A DNA stretch of 64,000 bases from an uncultured Gemmatimonas sp. (GTDB lineage Bacteria > Gemmatimonadota > Gemmatimonadetes > Gemmatimonadales > GWC2-71-9). The position numbers and the translations under genes were made by a program. The notes under the pieces are model-generated. The model was not told the origin of the DNA, ran no database searches, and saw nothing but the letters and a program-made list of their open reading frames with translations. Below, piece after piece: positions 24,537-63,779 of the stretch. The stretch is taken from contig CAYTMW010000016.1 of NCBI GenBank assembly GCA_964439025.1, forward strand, positions 9,216 to 73,215, in the 5' to 3' direction. The stretch's first letter is position 1. Each line of letters opens with the position of its first letter.

Positions 24537-24665
24537 GTGCCGACTGTCGACAACACTGCGGCCCGCGAGTGGTTCCAGGACGCGAAGTTCGGGATGTTCG
24601 TTCACTGGGGGATCTACAGCGTCCTCCAGGGTGACGCTCAGCTCGCCGCCGCACGGTTCGGGTGA
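24537..24665 (+). pseudogene. remnant of a GH29 alpha-L-fucosidase (N-terminal ~25 residues only)
   Basis: The frame reads [31 protein letters not shown], then unrelated residues and TGA. WF.DAKFGMF.HWG.YSV is the conserved GH29 N-terminal block. No signal peptide and no rest of the enzyme are present. Confidence 0.65.
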
Positions 24666-24826
24666 GGTGGATCAGGTGGTGGTGCTGCGGCTGTCGCGGT
24701 AACGGGGGCGCACGGGTGCAGGCCCCGTGTGCGGCGGCGGGTAGCGAGCAAGAGCCTGTGCGAGGTTATCTGGCTTATACCGCGTCTCGCCGCGGTAATA
24801 TCCACCGGAATATTGCGGCCGACTGC

Positions 24827-24956
24827 GCCCAACTCAAGCGGCTGCGTCGACTTGGTCGAATCTGGCTTCGCGTGGAGATTTGGAGATATGCCGCAGCCCA
24901 TTGCTGTGGTTTTGGGGAAGCGATAGAGTCGGTGTCGGCTTAAGTAAAGGTTATGC
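24827..24956 (+). other. attC-like recombination site (130 bp) preceding the HigBA-2 cassette
   Basis: It starts GCCCAAC (RYYYAAC) and ends ...GTCGGCTTAAGTAAAG-GTTATGC. The arms CTCAAGC..CGAC and GTCG..GCTTAAG pair. The left half is less regular than the right. Confidence 0.5.
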
Positions 24957-25022
24957 CGCTTCGCGTTGAGCCCGTGTTGCACGCCGCCTTCCGCTTCATA
25001 CTACTCAGTATTACATTAGAAC

Positions 25023-25367
25023 ATGGCCGCAGAACGGGCCGAGCTGGAATTCGTCTACACGCCGCTCTTCGATGCGAGCAGCAAAGGGCTGCTCGATGAC
25101 GAGGCCATGCGGCACGTTGAGATGACGTTGCTACAAGATCCCCGCGAAGGCGACGTGGTCGCGGGAACCGGTGGACTCCGGAAGCTCCGCGCGGCCTTGC
25201 CGGGTCGCGGCAAACGCGGGGGTGCCAGGATCATCTATTTCGCCGTGCTCGTGCGAAACCGGGTGTACTTTCTGTTGGCTTATGCGAAGAACCAACGGGT
25301 AGACCTCACTCCGGCTGAGAAACGAGAGCTTCGGGCGCTCGCCCGGTCCTTGGAACAGGAGGCCTAA
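25023..25367 (+). CDS. higB: HigB-2 / COG4737-type RelE-superfamily toxin
   Basis: The motifs GTGGLRKLRAALPGRGKRGGARIIYF...YFLLAYAKNQRVDLTPAEKREL match the HigB-2 pattern (GTGGLRK.R...GKRGG.RIIY...Y.KN..DL). Confidence 0.8.
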   Translation: MAAERAELEFVYTPLFDASSKGLLDDEAMRHVEMTLLQDPREGDVVAGTGGLRKLRAALPGRGKRGGARIIYFAVLVRNRVYFLLAYAKNQRVDLTPAEKRELRALARSLEQEA

Positions 25368-25741
25368 TGGCACACAAGCCGAAGGCGCGATTGGGGGGCC
25401 TCTTGGTGGAGAGCATGCGCCAAGCCGTGGCCATCAAGGAGGGTCGCCTGCGGCCCGCCCGCCGGCACCGGCTCACCTTGCGGGACACCCGTGTCAGCGC
25501 GCCACCCCGGTACGGTTCCTCGCGTATCCGTCGTCTGAGGGAGCGGCTGGGTCTCTCTCAGCCCGTGTTCGCACGGGCGCTCAATGTCAGCGTTGCGACG
25601 GTTCGTGGTTGGGAGCAGGGTGCGCGCGTTCCTGACGGCCCCTCGCGGCGGCTCTTGGAGGTAGTCGAGCGGCACCCGGGGACAGTACTGGTGGCCGTAT
25701 CATCCTCTCGGCCGCGATCCCGCTCCAGAGCAGCGGCATAA
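25367..25741 (+). CDS. higA: HigA-2-type HTH (XRE) antitoxin
   Basis: It overlaps the toxin stop (TAATG). The C-terminal HTH reads IRRLRERLGLSQPVFARALNVSVATVRGWEQGARVPDGPSRRLLEVVERHP. Confidence 0.8.
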   Translation: MAHKPKARLGGLLVESMRQAVAIKEGRLRPARRHRLTLRDTRVSAPPRYGSSRIRRLRERLGLSQPVFARALNVSVATVRGWEQGARVPDGPSRRLLEVVERHPGTVLVAVSSSRPRSRSRAAA

Positions 25742-25815
25742 CCCGCCCTTGAAGCTGACGGCCGCGGGCTGGCTTCGCCGGCGCCGCGGCCGCAGCTTAA
25801 GGCTCATTGTTACCT
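25736..25815 (+). other. attC-like recombination site (80 bp) closing the HigBA-2 cassette
   Basis: GCATAAC-CCGCCC-TTGAAGCTGACGGCCGCGG ... CCGCGGCCGCAGCTTAAG-GCTCATT-GTTACCT. The stem is about 18 bp with one bulged A. The higA-2 stop TAA lies inside GCATAAC. Confidence 0.7.
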
Positions 25816-25859
25816 GCGCATGCTGGGATTGGTGCCGCCTTCGAGCTGAGAGCTGAGCC

Positions 25860-26324
25860 ATGGGACAAGACGAGCCGCTCGTGGCCTCGAATGCGTTTGG
25901 CGGGGCGATTCCGATTTTCCGCGTGGAAAGCCTCGAGGCCTGCATTGACTACTACATCAAGGTGCTCGGATTCACGTTGCATTGGCGTGAGGCGAGCATC
26001 ATGGCCGCCGTCTCCCGCAATCGCTGCGAGATTTTCCCGTGCGAAGGGCACCAGGGCCACACCGGCACGTGGGCATGGATCGGCGTCACCGACGCGGAGT
26101 CGCTCTGTGCTGAGTTCCGGCAGAGAGGGGCCCGGGTGCGGCATCCGCCGACCAACTATCCCTGGGCGTACGAGATGCAGGTCGAGGATCCCGAGGGCAA
26201 CGTGCTCCGGTTCGGCTCGGACCCGAAGCCCGATGAGCCATTCGGACCATGGCTCGACATGCGGGGCGCCACCTGGGTGCACTCGCCCGGCGGCGGGTGG
26301 ATGCGCGCTGAGCCTCGCGCATGA
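25860..26324 (+). CDS. VOC family (glyoxalase/bleomycin-resistance) protein
   Basis: 154 aa; YYIKVLGFTLHW ... WAYEMQVEDPEGNVLRFG is typical of bleomycin-resistance/glyoxalase folds. Confidence 0.7.
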   Translation: MGQDEPLVASNAFGGAIPIFRVESLEACIDYYIKVLGFTLHWREASIMAAVSRNRCEIFPCEGHQGHTGTWAWIGVTDAESLCAEFRQRGARVRHPPTNYPWAYEMQVEDPEGNVLRFGSDPKPDEPFGPWLDMRGATWVHSPGGGWMRAEPRA

Positions 26325-27943
26325 TCCAGCCCGAAGCGCTCCGATCCGACGAGTACCAGCCGTGGTCGCGTGGCCGGGGCACCGACGTCTGGGCGATGCT
26401 CCGCGCCGCCGTGGATGGTGACCTGGCTACGATCGAGGCGCTGGTTGCCAGGGATCCGAACCTGCTCGACTGCGAATTCGAGTACTACCGGCCGCTGCAT
26501 TTCGCGGTGCGTGAGAATCGTCGTGATGTCGTCCGGTTCCTGCTGGAGCAGGGCGCGGATCCGATGTGCGGCGGCCTCGGCTTTCGCCCGGTCTACAAGC
26601 CCGGCGGCCCCCGCAGCCACCAATGGCTGTTTGACGTGGCGCGTGAGCGTGGCTACGCCGAGGTACTCGCGCTGTTGGAGGCGAAGGTCGCGGAGAAGCA
26701 CAAAATCGTGCCCGAAGGGGAATCGCTGACGGCCATGATCCGCGGCCGCGATTTCGACCAGGTTCGCGCCACGCTCGACGCGAGGCCTGATCTCATCGAC
26801 GCCGCGGATGCCTTCGGCAGCCAGCCGCTCCACTGGGCGGTGATGACCAGGCAGATGCCCCTGATCGACCTGCTGCTCCAGCGCGGCGCCGACATCGACG
26901 CCATGCGTCCCGATGGAGCGCGCCCGCTCGATCTCACCAACGGCGACTATTGGTATCGCGGCTGGCAGGATGTCCCGCGGGAGGCGCTCCGGCGGCACGA
27001 GGTCCTCATCGGCTACCTGTTGGCGCGCGGCGCAGACTACGACATCAGCACCGCGGCGCAGCTCGGCGACCTCGAGCGGGTGCGCACGATGCTGGACGAG
27101 AATCCGGCGCTCGTCAACACGGTTCCGCCGAGCACAGGCTACTACAATGGGGCGCCGCTTCGGTGCGCGGCCGGAGGCGGACACCTGGATGTGGTGAGAC
27201 TGCTCCTGGATCATGGCGCTGACCCCAACCTGCCGGAGCCGGTCGCCCCGCATGGCGGCGCGTTGCACGAGGCCATTGGCGGCAAGCACTGGGAGATCGT
27301 CAAGCTGCTCCTCGAGCACGGCGCCAACCCCAACGCCATGGTCGAATCCTCCGGCAATTGCGTGTGGAGGGCGAGAGGCGCACCTCCGGAGATCCTGGAC
27401 CTACTGGCTTCACACGGCGGCGTCCTGGGCCTGGAACTGGCGTGCTACGAGGGCGACGTCGCCTACATCGAGGGAATGCTTCAGGCGAATCCGGCCCTTC
27501 CGATTCATCGGTACCTGGGCACCGATCGAGAAGAGCTCGTGGCCCTGGCTTTGCGCTACCAGCCGGCCGTTCTCACGAAGATGGTCTTCGGTGGCGCACA
27601 AACACCTGAGTACGCGCGCTGGCTGATGGAGCACGGCATGGATCCGAACCGAGGGAACTGGCTCGGGATGACGCCGCTGCACCGCTTCGCGCTCAACGGA
27701 AATCGGGAGATGGCCTCCCTTTGCCTCGAGTTCGGCGCCCGGATCGATCCTATCGATGACGAATTCTCCTCCACGCCGCTCTGCTGGGCCGCGCGGGCCG
27801 GTCAGAAGGAAATGGTCGAGTGGCTGCTCGCGCGCAGTGCGAACCCCGCGCTGCCTTACGACAAGCCATGGGCCCGGCCCGCCGAATGGGCCAAGCGGCG
27901 GGGGCACGACGAGATCGCGGCGCTGCTCAGCGCGTCGAGCTGA
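26321..27943 (+). CDS. ankyrin-repeat protein (540 aa)
   Basis: Multiple ANK repeats (PLHFAVRENRRDVVRFLLEQGADP; PLHWAVMTRQMPLIDLLLQRGADIDA; ALHEAIGGKHWEIVKLLLEHGANPNA). ATGA overlap with the VOC gene. Confidence 0.85.
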   Translation: MIQPEALRSDEYQPWSRGRGTDVWAMLRAAVDGDLATIEALVARDPNLLDCEFEYYRPLHFAVRENRRDVVRFLLEQGADPMCGGLGFRPVYKPGGPRSHQWLFDVARERGYAEVLALLEAKVAEKHKIVPEGESLTAMIRGRDFDQVRATLDARPDLIDAADAFGSQPLHWAVMTRQMPLIDLLLQRGADIDAMRPDGARPLDLTNGDYWYRGWQDVPREALRRHEVLIGYLLARGADYDISTAAQLGDLERVRTMLDENPALVNTVPPSTGYYNGAPLRCAAGGGHLDVVRLLLDHGADPNLPEPVAPHGGALHEAIGGKHWEIVKLLLEHGANPNAMVESSGNCVWRARGAPPEILDLLASHGGVLGLELACYEGDVAYIEGMLQANPALPIHRYLGTDREELVALALRYQPAVLTKMVFGGAQTPEYARWLMEHGMDPNRGNWLGMTPLHRFALNGNREMASLCLEFGARIDPIDDEFSSTPLCWAARAGQKEMVEWLLARSANPALPYDKPWARPAEWAKRRGHDEIAALLSASS

Positions 27944-29696
27944 TACCGCCGGGGTCTTCTTCACAAGGAGTCGACGCGGGGCCGGCGGCATCCAACAGGT
28001 CCGCGATCTGATCCAGCCCGCGCTGGCGGGCGCGATCCGCCGCCGTCTCCCCTTCCTTGTTTCTCAGCGATGGATCGGCTCCATGCGCCAGCAACAGACG
28101 GGCAATTTCCGTCGCGCGATCGTCATCGTCAGGCAGCCACATCAGCGGGGTGTGCCCACCACTCACGATCCTCGCAAGCCCGGGCTCGGCACTCAACAGT
28201 TCCTGTAGGCGCTCGACCGCTCCAATCCAGGTCAGCTCGAAGACATCCCGACTGACGCGGCTCAGGAGCTCGATCGTGCCCTGCTTCTTGCCGTAGACCG
28301 CCCAGCCAAGCGGCGTGTTGCCGTGGTTGGCGTCCCGGGGATCGACCTCCGCGCCGCGCTCGATGAGGAGTGCCACCACGCCGGGCGCGTCGGCATGCGC
28401 GGCCTCGTGCAGCGCGCGTGTCCTGCTGGAATCCTCGACATCGACCGACATGCCGAGGCCGAGCAGGAAGGCCACGACGTCGGCGCGGTCGCGTTTGGCA
28501 GCGGCGAACATCGCCACCGGCGAGCGCAGGTACTCCGGGTGCTCTGCCAGGAGCACAAGCGCTCGCGTGCGGTCGAGCCGGAGCGCTGCCGCCGCGAAGG
28601 CTTCCACCCCCTCCAGGACCACCGCGCTCCTGGTCGCCCCGTTACGCGCCAGCAACTCGGCCATCTCCAACTGGTCCAGGCGCACCGCTTCTTCGTAGAG
28701 AGTTCCCTTTGGATTGAATGTCAGATTGGAGGACTTCGGAACATTCGGACTTGCGCCATGCGCCAGGATCCATTCGGCGAGCGAAAGATCGTTCTTCCGC
28801 ACGGCGATTCCGAGCAGGTAGTACGCACCGGGACCGTAACCGCCCATGTCCAGCATCGCCCAGTTCGGATCATCCCAGTCGATTTGCCTGCCCAGCCTGA
28901 CCGCCTGGGCATACATCAGCTTCAGAAACCAGAGGATGTCGCCGCGAAAGTGCGTGTTATAGAGGGTCTGGTTGTCGTACGGCTCGGCACCACGCTCGAG
29001 GAGCAGCTGCCACAGCGCCTCGCGCTTGGGGTGCGGCGTTCCGTCCTCCTCACCCTCCCCGGCAACACAGGTCAGAGCCGTGTAATGGATGCTTTCGTTT
29101 CCACCGGGATAGTAGGCGTTCGGATCCGCGCCCCCGTCGAGCAGAGCGCGGGCAATGGCGACAGCGTGGTCGTCCGCGGTTGGGAGCGACAGGCGCGTGG
29201 AGCAGAGGTATAACAGCGGCGGCCAGTCTCTCGGTCCGCCCTTCTCTGGCGCGGCTGCAGGCCGTTCGGCGAGCAGGCGCTCGACTTCCTCCAGATCGCC
29301 GGAGACGACAGCCGTGTAGATGCTGTCGCACACAATCTCGGGATGCCGTCTGAGCAGGCGCTCGGCGGTGTGGCGGCACGAGGCCCGCATGGAGCCGCCG
29401 ACCCGCCAGTCGAGGCTCGCATTCCTCAGGAACGCGGCGACACGCTCGGCATGGCGGGGATCGACGCGCGCATTCGCGGCGAGCTCGTGGGTGAGGGCTG
29501 TCCAGCCGGGGAGACCGTGTTCCAGCGCAAGCGCGTGCTGGACGTCACGCAGAATGGGATCGGTGGGTGCGCCGGGGTGGGCTTGCTCGAATCGAGCCCA
29601 TGCTTCGGCGACATTTGCGCGAAGGGCGTGGAGCCAGCGCTTCGCTTGCTTCTTCAGGTTCTCGAGGGTGCTCTGGGGCGTGAGTTTCCTGCTCAT
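27927..29696 (-). CDS. ankyrin-repeat protein (589 aa) with helical N-terminal domain
   Basis: ANK repeats (ALHEAAHADAPGVVALLIERGAEVDP; TPLMWLPDDDDRATEIARLLLAHGADPSL). The N-terminus is LENLKKQAKRWLHALRAN... It is convergent with the previous gene and overlaps its 3' end by 17 nt. Confidence 0.85.
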   Translation of the reverse strand: MSRKLTPQSTLENLKKQAKRWLHALRANVAEAWARFEQAHPGAPTDPILRDVQHALALEHGLPGWTALTHELAANARVDPRHAERVAAFLRNASLDWRVGGSMRASCRHTAERLLRRHPEIVCDSIYTAVVSGDLEEVERLLAERPAAAPEKGGPRDWPPLLYLCSTRLSLPTADDHAVAIARALLDGGADPNAYYPGGNESIHYTALTCVAGEGEEDGTPHPKREALWQLLLERGAEPYDNQTLYNTHFRGDILWFLKLMYAQAVRLGRQIDWDDPNWAMLDMGGYGPGAYYLLGIAVRKNDLSLAEWILAHGASPNVPKSSNLTFNPKGTLYEEAVRLDQLEMAELLARNGATRSAVVLEGVEAFAAAALRLDRTRALVLLAEHPEYLRSPVAMFAAAKRDRADVVAFLLGLGMSVDVEDSSRTRALHEAAHADAPGVVALLIERGAEVDPRDANHGNTPLGWAVYGKKQGTIELLSRVSRDVFELTWIGAVERLQELLSAEPGLARIVSGGHTPLMWLPDDDDRATEIARLLLAHGADPSLRNKEGETAADRARQRGLDQIADLLDAAGPASTPCEEDPGGISSTR

Positions 29697-32314: not shown

Positions 32315-32412
32315 CTGGACAGCACAGCATTCGCATCAATGCGCAGTATCGCATTTGCTTTCGATGGGAGGATGGGTATGCCGACGAGGTCGAAGTCACG
32401 GACTACCACTAG
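32314..32412 (+). pseudogene. higB: 5'-deleted higB (plasmid-maintenance-killer type toxin), last ~32 codons only
   Basis: Directly after the peptidase stop the frame reads TGQHSIRINAQYRICFRWEDGYADEVEVTDYH*, the conserved C-terminus of classical HigB. The N-terminal ~60 residues are absent. Confidence 0.75.
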
Positions 32413-32422
32413 GCGTGGGCGA

Positions 32423-32755
32423 TTGACCCCACGGCCGTTGATCACTCGACCATTGCCGACCCGGCGTCCGCCGACCCACCCGGGCGAGATGCTATTGGAG
32501 GAATTCCTTCGCCCGCTGGGGGTCTCCCAATCTGCTTTCGCGGTGCGTCTCGGGGTCTCGTTTCCGCGGCTCAACGAGATCGTCCGGGCGAAGCGCGGCG
32601 TGACTCCGGACACCGCCCTTCGTCTAGCGCGTGTCACAGGGATGAGCGCGGATTTCTGGCTCGGGCTGCAGCAGGATTGGGATCTCTGGCACGCCCTACG
32701 GTCGGGAGCGGCGGCAGAGATCCAGCGCCTGGAGCCTCTCTCCCACGCGAGCTAG
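32423..32755 (+). CDS. higA: HigA (VapI-type) HTH antitoxin; start among TTG 32423/32438/32453
   Basis: THPGEMLLEEFLRPLGVSQSAFAVRLGVSFPRLNEIVRAKRGVTPDTALRLARVTGMSADFWLGLQQDWDLW is the canonical HigA pattern. Confidence 0.8.
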   Translation: MTPRPLITRPLPTRRPPTHPGEMLLEEFLRPLGVSQSAFAVRLGVSFPRLNEIVRAKRGVTPDTALRLARVTGMSADFWLGLQQDWDLWHALRSGAAAEIQRLEPLSHAS

Positions 32756-60728: not shown

Positions 60729-60802
60729 GGGCGATTAGCTCAGCTGGTTAGAGCGCGCGCCTCACATGCGCGAGGTCGGGGGTTCGAGCCCCTCATCGCC
60801 CA
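60729..60802 (+). tRNA. tRNA-Val (anticodon CAC), no encoded CCA
   Basis: Folded by hand: acceptor GGGCGAT/ATCGCCC+A, D arm GCTC-AGCTGGTTA-GAGC, anticodon arm CGCGC-CTCACAT-GCGCG, variable loop AGGTC, T arm GGGGG-TTCGAGC-CCCTC. Total 74 nt. Confidence 0.88.
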
Positions 60803-61020: not shown

Positions 61021-61317
61021 CTACCCGCTGGTGCTGCTGCCGGTCGACCCAGGTTGGTATCGTCGGCGGAGGACCAGTGCTGCAGACTCCGACCGCACCG
61101 CCGAATCCACCGCTCGTCTTTCCTGCTCACACCATGCCTGGAGTTCGGCTGTCACACCAGCCTCAGTAAGCGTGCGAAGGCCCTTGTTGACAACTCGAAG
61201 CCAGTCGATGTACGGGGGCTCAAGTTGGTCCGGGTCGGCAGCGATGGCACGGAGCTTGTGCCGGTCGGGCTCGTTGTACCAGGCAACGCCGACTCTCGTT
61301 TCGGGTGACCGCTGCAT
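61021..61317 (-). CDS. hypothetical small protein (cassette-like ORF)
   Basis: 98-aa ORF (MQRSPETRVGVAWYNEPDRHKLRAIAADPDQLEPPYIDWL...AELQAWCEQ...) with plausible protein composition. It is preceded at 43 nt by an attC-like right end. No family recognised. Confidence 0.4.
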   Translation of the reverse strand: MQRSPETRVGVAWYNEPDRHKLRAIAADPDQLEPPYIDWLRVVNKGLRTLTEAGVTAELQAWCEQERRAVDSAVRSESAALVLRRRYQPGSTGSSTSG

Positions 61318-61602
61318 CGCTAAGACTCCGTGTGAAGAACTGGACTCCGATCGGCGCGCGCCGAACGACTTGCGCTTCAGCTGCGGGGCGTGCTATGGCA
61401 GGCTCGGCTCAGGCTCTGTGATGCCAACGGCCGGGGACGCCGCGCCCGCGCACCGTCAAAGCGCCAACCGCCCGCGTGTACCGGGGGGCCGCAAACACTC
61501 AGAGAGGGCCTGCCGACAGTATCCCCGGGGCGGGGCCTTTCCCACCAATCCAATGGGCTGGGAATTGAATGATCGGTTTCCGCATAACGAACAGCGTTAT
61601 GC

Positions 61603-61684
61603 TGCCAACGCCCAAATGAAATGCGGCCGCGGCGCGGCCGCTACCGATAGGCCTGCGTTGGTCAGTATCAACGCGCGGTTAGAC
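61603..61684 (-). other. degenerate attC-like site after the beta-propeller ORF
   Basis: The minus strand reads GTCTAAC-CGCGCGTTGATACTGACCAACGC ... GCGGCCGCGCCGCGGCCGC ... GCGTTGGCA. The inverse core is perfect and the right end is imperfect. Confidence 0.5.
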
Positions 61685-62949: not shown

Positions 62950-63070
62950 GTCTAACGGGCTGCGCTTCTGCTGCGGGGGCCTGCCGAAGCCGCCGCCAGC
63001 CACCCCAACAAGCATAACCGGCGGCGGCCGAAGCGCTTAGGGCCCCGGCAGCTGCAAGCGCGGGTTAGGT
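62950..63070 (-). other. attC site (121 bp) after the OMP ORF
   Basis: The minus strand reads ACCTAAC-CCGCGCTTGCAGCTGCCGGGGCC ... GGCCCCCGCAGCAGAAGCGCAGCCC-GTTAGAC. There is an additional inner 9-bp stem GCCGCCGCC/GGCGGCGGC. Confidence 0.75.
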
Positions 63071-63692: not shown

Positions 63693-63779
63693 ACCTAACG
63701 GACTGCGCTTCTGCTGCGGCCGCGATAGCCGACGGGCGACATCCAGCGCGCGGCCGTCTGCAGCAAGCGCGGGTTAGGC
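63693..63779 (-). other. attC site (87 bp) after the DUF3303-like ORF
   Basis: The minus strand reads GCCTAAC-CCGCGCTTGCTGCAGACGGCCGCGCG ... CGCGGCCGCAGCAGAAGCGCAGTCC-GTTAGGT. Both core heptamers fit RYYYAAC / GTTRRRY perfectly. Confidence 0.75.

Follow-up and report, generated by a model that had tools for sequence, protein, structure and literature searches.

Toxin-antitoxin (TA) cassettes, CALINs, SALINs and the integrons of Gemmatimonadota have all been described already (PMC8618304; bioRxiv 10.1101/2022.09.11.507474). SALINs are common, and cassettes inserted into a genome can cause deletions in the neighbouring DNA (bioRxiv 10.1101/2022.09.11.507474). Among the described systems, higBA-2 of the Vibrio cholerae superintegron (VCA0468/VCA0469; PDB 5JA8, 5JAA and 8A0X) provides the best PDB matches to the module analyzed here. 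Both pairs belong to the same TA families, have the toxin gene first and form an operon packaged as an attC-bounded cassette with an apparent promoter of its own. The locus described here lies within a 64-kb stretch of DNA (hereafter the window; ~68% G+C) from an uncultured Gemmatimonadales-type bacterium, and differs from its V. cholerae counterpart in that the proteins are only ~40% identical, the host is a high-GC Gemmatimonadales-type organism, the attC belongs to a different family (TAAC-CC-GCSCTT-G-...) from the VCR and the cassette is found outside an array rather than within one.

The locus also resembles SALINs and CALINs, which in the nomenclature of IntegronFinder are, respectively, single attC sites and groups of attC sites without an integron integrase. 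What it has in common with them is one detectable attC site and a coding unit in ordinary chromosomal DNA, with no integrase or other intact att site nearby. Compared with these elements, its cargo is an addiction module and, unlike in a SALIN, its left junction carries attC-like boxes, such that it may be a decayed two-site CALIN and not a clean attG insertion. Arrays in metagenome-assembled genomes (MAGs) of Gemmatimonadales (including JABFSM01 WB-IL-12, CAVOMQ01 and GCA_041741375.1) contain attC sites of the same family as the window site, together with homologous HigB-2/HigA-2 cassettes in which the antitoxin stop codon is also located inside GCATAAC. Those arrays hold multiple cassettes, whereas the window cassette is isolated and inverted relative to its own array. 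A lone TA cassette is a known kind of element, and current understanding is unchanged by this one.

The unit under study spans 859 bp (24951-25809, + strand), starting with the TT of the upstream core and ending at the G in the core of its own attC, as had been deduced in a preliminary description made from the DNA sequence, and is very probably a genuine integron gene cassette carrying a type II TA operon and an intact attC. The first gene (25023-25367, + strand) encodes a HigB-2-like toxin of 114 aa, which matches PF06296 with 39.6 bits against a cutoff of 27 and finds its best solved structures in V. cholerae HigB-2 (8A0X and 5JA8; E = 5e-21, ~41% identity over 101 residues). The second (25367-25741, + strand) encodes a HigA-2-like antitoxin of 124 aa with a helix-turn-helix (HTH) domain (Pfam HTH_31 and HTH_3), whose best solved structures are those of V. 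cholerae HigA-2 (5J9I and 5JAA; E = 8e-11). The order is toxin-first, with the start of higA-2 overlapping the TAA stop of the toxin gene by 1 nt at 25367. By these profile and structure matches the pair is homologous to the HigB-2/HigA-2 type II TA systems, in agreement with the typing first proposed. On grounds of homology, HigB-2 would cleave mRNA in a ribosome-dependent manner and would be neutralized by the antitoxin. The GC3 of the two genes (0.73–0.74) is lower than that of neighbouring genes (0.81–0.88), which we count as foreign composition.

Upstream of the toxin gene we detected a conserved palindrome, ATACTACTCAGTAT (24998-25011, + strand), and a -10-like box, TACATT (25012-25017, + strand), 5 nt before the ATG. 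Nucleotide homology between TA modules starts at window position 24996, with this palindrome, and TACTACNCAGTANTAC followed by TAC(A/C)TT is kept upstream of the toxin homologues in loci L205, L209, L210, L212, L213 and L214. We read ATACTACTCAGTAT as a putative operator for HigA-2 and TACATT as a candidate -10 box, an arrangement predicted to yield a near-leaderless transcript. The motif TTGCAC-N16-TACTAC, earlier suggested to be promoter-like, is present at 24977-25004, but its role as a promoter is doubtful, as a sigma-70 consensus scan of 24600-25900 called no promoter and the motif is not conserved.

The attC site (25736-25815, + strand) is found downstream of, and co-oriented with, the two + strand TA genes and runs from R'' (GCATAAC, 25736-25742) to R' (GTTACCT, 25809-25815), with the higA-2 stop codon (TAA, 25739-25741) inside GCATAAC, all of which the preliminary description had given correctly. 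Its 5' half consists of GCATAAC, a CC spacer, GCCCTT, a bulged G25751, AAGCTG and a bulged A25758, leading into a GC-rich stem and loop, while the 3' half consists of CAGCTT, AAGGCT, CATT and GTTACCT, with L' (GCTTAAG) followed by a spacer and R'. The site folds with -31.3 kcal/mol (z = -3.7), and none of 200 shuffled sequences did as well. The stem had been put at ~18 bp with a bulged A; the bulged A is present, but the stem was understated, being ~25 bp in length with a second bulge at G25751, and both bulges are on the R''/L'' (5') arm. A terminator scan of 24600-25900 did not find the attC terminator-like, its sole match being at 25245-25266, and an Rfam search returned nothing relevant. 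The first 17 nt of the site, TAACCCGCCCTTGAAGC, fit the pattern TAACCCGCNCTTGNNGC, which occurs elsewhere in the window only at 63051 and 63760 (both on the - strand, compared with + for the site at 25736), and the reverse complements of 62950-63070 and 63693-63779 closely resemble 25736-25815.

In order to test this site without circularity, we built a covariance model (R1) from 17 attC sites belonging to other Gemmatimonadota genomes only. These were obtained by scanning public genomes with the 17-nt pattern, which retrieved at least 12 Gemmatimonadota MAG loci containing the 17 sites; most of the matches listed in that scan were chance occurrences, and it is informative for the Gemmatimonadota subset only. 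The 17 sites share a conserved, independent 3' arm, and their common structure (a 7-bp R stem, 6 bp, a G bulge, 6 bp, a bulge and 5 bp) has 94.6% of cells paired, shows compensatory changes at 11 pairs and beats 500 of 500 shuffles as well as every slid register. A broader model (R2) was based on 47 sites. Both models are specific to this family and distinct from the model of IntegronFinder, and their E-values are rough. The downstream site scored 48.3 bits with R1 on the + strand (E ~1e-12) compared with 8.9 bits on the - strand, meaning that the orientation of the attC matches that of the genes, and 49.7 bits with R2. None of ~94 control loci from other phyla, which carry the 17-nt seed by chance, scored above 24 bits, and scores of at least 40 bits among seed-carrying loci were confined to clustered, co-oriented sites resembling real arrays. 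The 25736-25815 element is a real attC of the same family as the array sites, and the packaging of the TA pair as an integron-type cassette was borne out by both covariance models.

Four loci with MAG labels other than Gemmatimonadota (L105, L063, L075 and L089, the labels in this set being 'bacterium', delta proteobacterium, Binatia and Thermoanaerobaculaceae) also contain attC sites, of 40–103 bits with the Gemmatimonadota-derived model. These sites are clustered and co-oriented in L105 and L063. Either the attC family spans more than one phylum or some of the bins are mislabelled.

The boundaries of the cassette carry the signature of integron recombination. Its 5' end, G/TTATGCCGCT, is complementary over 12 nt to AGCGGCATAAC at the start of the attC, and positions 24949-24960 (GGTTATGCCGCT) are the reverse complement of 25732-25743. 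The motif GCTTAAGTAAAG-GTTATGC ends at 24956, as had been noted, and its core GTTATGC is complementary to the inverse core of the cassette, GCATAAC, at seven of seven positions, compared with four of seven for the cassette's own GTTACCT; this observation, made in the preliminary description for the heptamer, is real and extends to the full 12 nt. The same holds for the G/TT hallmark itself. Among 32 pairs of neighbouring attC sites in arrays of this family, 26 show it, with an inverse core fully complementary to the core of the preceding site, and in only 6 does the inverse core complement the core of the site to which it belongs. The palindrome is clearly not a generic REP without core complementarity. 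When 25730-25809 is joined to 24951-24962, as in the excised circle, the reconstituted junction folds into a canonical attC hairpin of -38.7 kcal/mol whose R-box stem is 11 bp long, compared with -31.3 kcal/mol for the arrangement in the chromosome. A further cassette would have AGGTAAC as its inverse core; this heptamer was not found downstream, and the TA cassette is therefore the last unit.

The genes around the cassette are ordinary chromosomal ones, including GH20, aminotransferase, glyoxalase, ankyrin-repeat, M20 peptidase, GGT, PheS, DnaJ and HrcA genes. To the left is the N-terminal remnant of a GH29 alpha-L-fucosidase gene (24537-24633, + strand), ~30 codons long and matching positions 18-48 of 345 in the PF01120 profile. 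A tblastn search of the 64-kb window with three GH29 proteins recovered these N-terminal 30 codons only; the body of the gene is missing from the window, so that a deletion or rearrangement has taken place next to the cassette. The remnant is divergent from the GH20 hexosaminidase gene. The 317-bp left flank between the remnant and the cassette shows no codon periodicity and is non-coding, and neither the left nor the right flank has similarity to the fetched loci or to the rest of the window. Directly downstream of the glyoxalase gene are two convergent ankyrin-repeat genes (26321-27943, + strand, 540 aa; 27927-29696, - strand, 589 aa), the second of which has a GC3 of 0.72, below that of typical host genes. 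The M20 peptidase and GGT genes flank a gene (32339-32755, + strand) for another small HTH_3/HTH_31 protein (138 aa), similar in type to antitoxins or regulators.

The main array of the window lies ~35.5 kb away, consistent with the 35 kb originally reported. With R1, its attC sites at 62950-63070 and 63693-63779 (both on the - strand) scored 100.4 and 68.5 bits, respectively, and a weaker site at 61582-61684 (- strand) scored 27.5 bits (E = 3.5e-6). The array and its ORFs are on the minus strand, opposite to the TA cassette. At one end it stops ~500 bp from a tRNA-Val(CAC) gene (60729-60802), and at the other it runs on beyond 64 kb, where L005 shows no fewer than two further attC sites; its integrase is presumably also outside the window. 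The segment 61360-61581 resembles a cassette without an ORF whose attC is marginal (15.4 bits), and a 98-aa ORF adjoining the tRNA (61021-61317) is not followed by an attC. We found no integrase upstream of the related arrays L025 and L054. Nearer to the cassette, an attC search of 20-32 kb with filters off returned the single match at 25736-25815. As had been stated earlier, no integrase is nearby: no tyrosine recombinase was present among the ORFs tested, namely those in 20.8-36 kb and ten ORFs of 288–408 aa elsewhere.

The toxin has 1,212 homologues, of which the closest are 65–82% identical, and the source names shown for these are all Gemmatimonadales. Homologous TA modules (68–79% nucleotide identity) occur within attC arrays of Gemmatimonadales. 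In L210 (GCA_041741375.1), the homologous operon is part of a TA-rich array and is followed by an attC of 48 bits with R1 and 65 bits with R2, with GCATAAC over the antitoxin stop and a cassette start, GTTATGCCGC, identical to that of the window cassette. L209 (GCA_030697825.1) has a 69-bit attC (GCATAAC...GTTATGC) after the antitoxin gene, and in L212 and L213, both Gemmatimonadales arrays, the TA pair is inside an array and its attC is decayed. The antitoxin stop is inside GCATAAC in L209, L210 and L212 and inside a mutated GCATAGT in L213. In chromosomal contexts (L205, L206 and L214) the TA pair has no attC; judging from these sequences, the module also exists outside cassettes. Positions 1-4700 of L210 are almost entirely made up of TA cassettes (HigB-like/HTH_3, DUF4160/DUF2442, FitA/PIN and RelE(HigB-2)/HTH), with no detectable attC between the PIN and HigB-2 pairs, which may be two fused cassettes.

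Searches for an empty site, or for another context of this exact cassette, retrieved none: all five loci with the exact toxin or GH20 protein represent the same context. An exact-protein look-up of the glyoxalase gave no record, its closest homologues are at most 70% identical, and the GH20 relatives in JGI are at most 58% identical and not syntenic.

The left junction is where our analysis departs from the preliminary description, which placed the TA pair between two palindromes of one family: an attC could be detected at the downstream site only. The upstream stretch (24827-24956, + strand), of which only the last 6 nt are part of the cassette, contains GCCCAAC and CTCAAGC and then GCTTAAG-TAAAG-GTTATGC. 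R1 and R2 with filters off gave no match to 24827-24956, the 2–4 bits obtained being noise. Folding of the stretch was not significant either (z = -1.25 on one strand and -0.91 on the other, with 20 of 200 shuffles as good in the first case), and the minimum-free-energy structure leaves the proposed boxes unpaired with each other. Both models and folding on either strand were thus negative for an attC of the family. Inspection by eye of alternative sites in 24696-24771 (CGGTAAC...GTTATCT) revealed no arm complementarity, and these had no model match. Separately, the rare heptamer GTTACC(T/G) recurs near HigBA-2 modules, as the terminal core in the window (25809-25815), upstream of the toxin gene in L209 (3078-3084) and in a spacer in L210 (~3634), and CGGTAAC, a heptamer of the GTTACC(T/G) type, is found in the left flank of the window at 24697-24703.

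The boxes of the upstream stretch are, at the same time, non-random. The 64-kb window has just two copies of GCTTAAG, at 24938 and 25795, both located 5–7 nt before a GTTA core, and the composite GCTTAAG-GTTA pattern appeared in none of 100 shuffles. The expected partner, AAC followed by CTCAAGC, is located at 24831, against a background of ~0.006–0.009 per 100 nt. GCCCAAC is, moreover, the inverse core of real attC sites of the family (L210 site 2 and L051 site 7). The stretch is at best read as the relic of a decayed attC, with a spacing between R'' and L'' of 0 nt compared with the ~5 nt expected and with the next 6-bp stem missing. A start core GTTGGGC, as would belong to a preceding cassette, was not found in 24634-24826.

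The TA cassette can be classed either as a SALIN, being a lone cassette, or as a decayed CALIN of minimal size. It has the single attC and adjacent coding sequence of a SALIN, with no other attC match in 20-32 kb and no integrase among the ORFs tested, and the intI that a complete integron would require was not found near it. Most likely, a tiny array ends here with the TA cassette, its sole intact member, next to which on the left is a decayed relic; in its present state the element amounts to a SALIN with a single attC. On balance we lean towards a history in which a short cluster of cassettes became separated from its integron or inserted at this place, the cassette to the left decayed or was deleted together with most of its attC, the fucosidase body was lost too and the TA cassette survived as it is addictive. 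The attC-like boxes to the left of the cassette, including an R'' variant, GCCCAAC, that real attC sites use, are the reason for favouring this reading over direct insertion. It is also consistent with the decayed attC sites beside the homologous TA cassettes of L212 and L213, with the non-coding nature of the 317-bp left flank and with L210, where the GTTATGCCGC start is likewise without a detectable preceding attC, although it is inside an array. The lack of a hairpin or model match at the upstream site, the 0-nt R''-L'' spacing and the lack of GTTGGGC in 24634-24826 argue against it.

Direct insertion away from the integron platform, in which IntI integrated a single higBA-2 circle into a double-stranded GTT site of the attG type in the genome, 44 nt ahead of the glyoxalase gene, would turn the element into a SALIN proper and make the attC-like boxes to its left a coincidence; we regard this as plausible but unlikely. 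It has in its favour the one attC detectable within 12 kb and the truncated gene next door, and the joined flanks, ...TAAAGG/TTACCT..., contain the GWT motif reported for attG sites (bioRxiv 10.1101/2022.09.11.507474). However, GCTTAAG-N5-GTTA, directly to the left of the crossover, reproduces the L'-spacer-R' arrangement found in the attC of the cassette itself and has no further copy in the window, and an AAC-CTCAAGC partner is located 100 nt upstream, features that would not be anticipated in a genomic target hit at random; nor does the left flank consist of native fucosidase sequence. Rather more doubtful still is the specific proposal that the locus is a natural attC x attG product, the TA cassette having been captured into the chromosome and the truncation of the fucosidase gene being the scar of an imprecise excision or deletion mediated by the integrase. 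If true, it would provide a field example, from a little-studied phylum, of integrases remodelling the core chromosome, the insertion being secured by an addiction module. That the locus is no cassette at all, but a chromosomal TA operon of the ordinary sort, with a GC-rich terminator or a REP-like palindrome after it that resembles an attC, is very improbable, for while homologous TA pairs without attC exist (L205 and L214) and a hairpin just after an operon is in the usual place of a terminator, the site reaches 48–50 bits with independent attC models and a clear strand, is not called terminator-like, has family relatives in the window only in the array, and belongs to a unit with 12-nt complementarity between its ends and a boundary hallmark common to 26 of 32 array junctions.

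Returning to the cassette reading, the mechanism we propose assumes an active IntI in the source genome. An integron integrase encoded elsewhere would recognize the folded bottom strand of the attC and cut between G and TT, such that the cassette would once have been excised as a circle and then reinserted. In the circle, the attC would have been closed by the 11-bp stem between AGCGGCATAAC and GTTATGCCGCT, which are now split between the ends of the cassette. HigB-2 is predicted to be a RelE-fold, ribosome-dependent mRNA endonuclease, and HigA-2 an HTH protein acting as both antitoxin and repressor. The operon would be self-expressed and would be repressed by HigA-2 through the conserved palindrome that closely precedes the start codon. 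As long as the cassette is present HigA-2 would neutralize HigB-2, and its loss would free a stable toxin, making the module addictive.

Together, our analyses document a well-defined attC sequence family across the chromosomal integrons of Gemmatimonadales and will be of use for the annotation of MAGs and for studies of the spread of cassettes outside integrons. Cassettes of the HigBA-2 type recur in the integrons of Gemmatimonadales, and such a cassette can persist alone, far from the integron platform.
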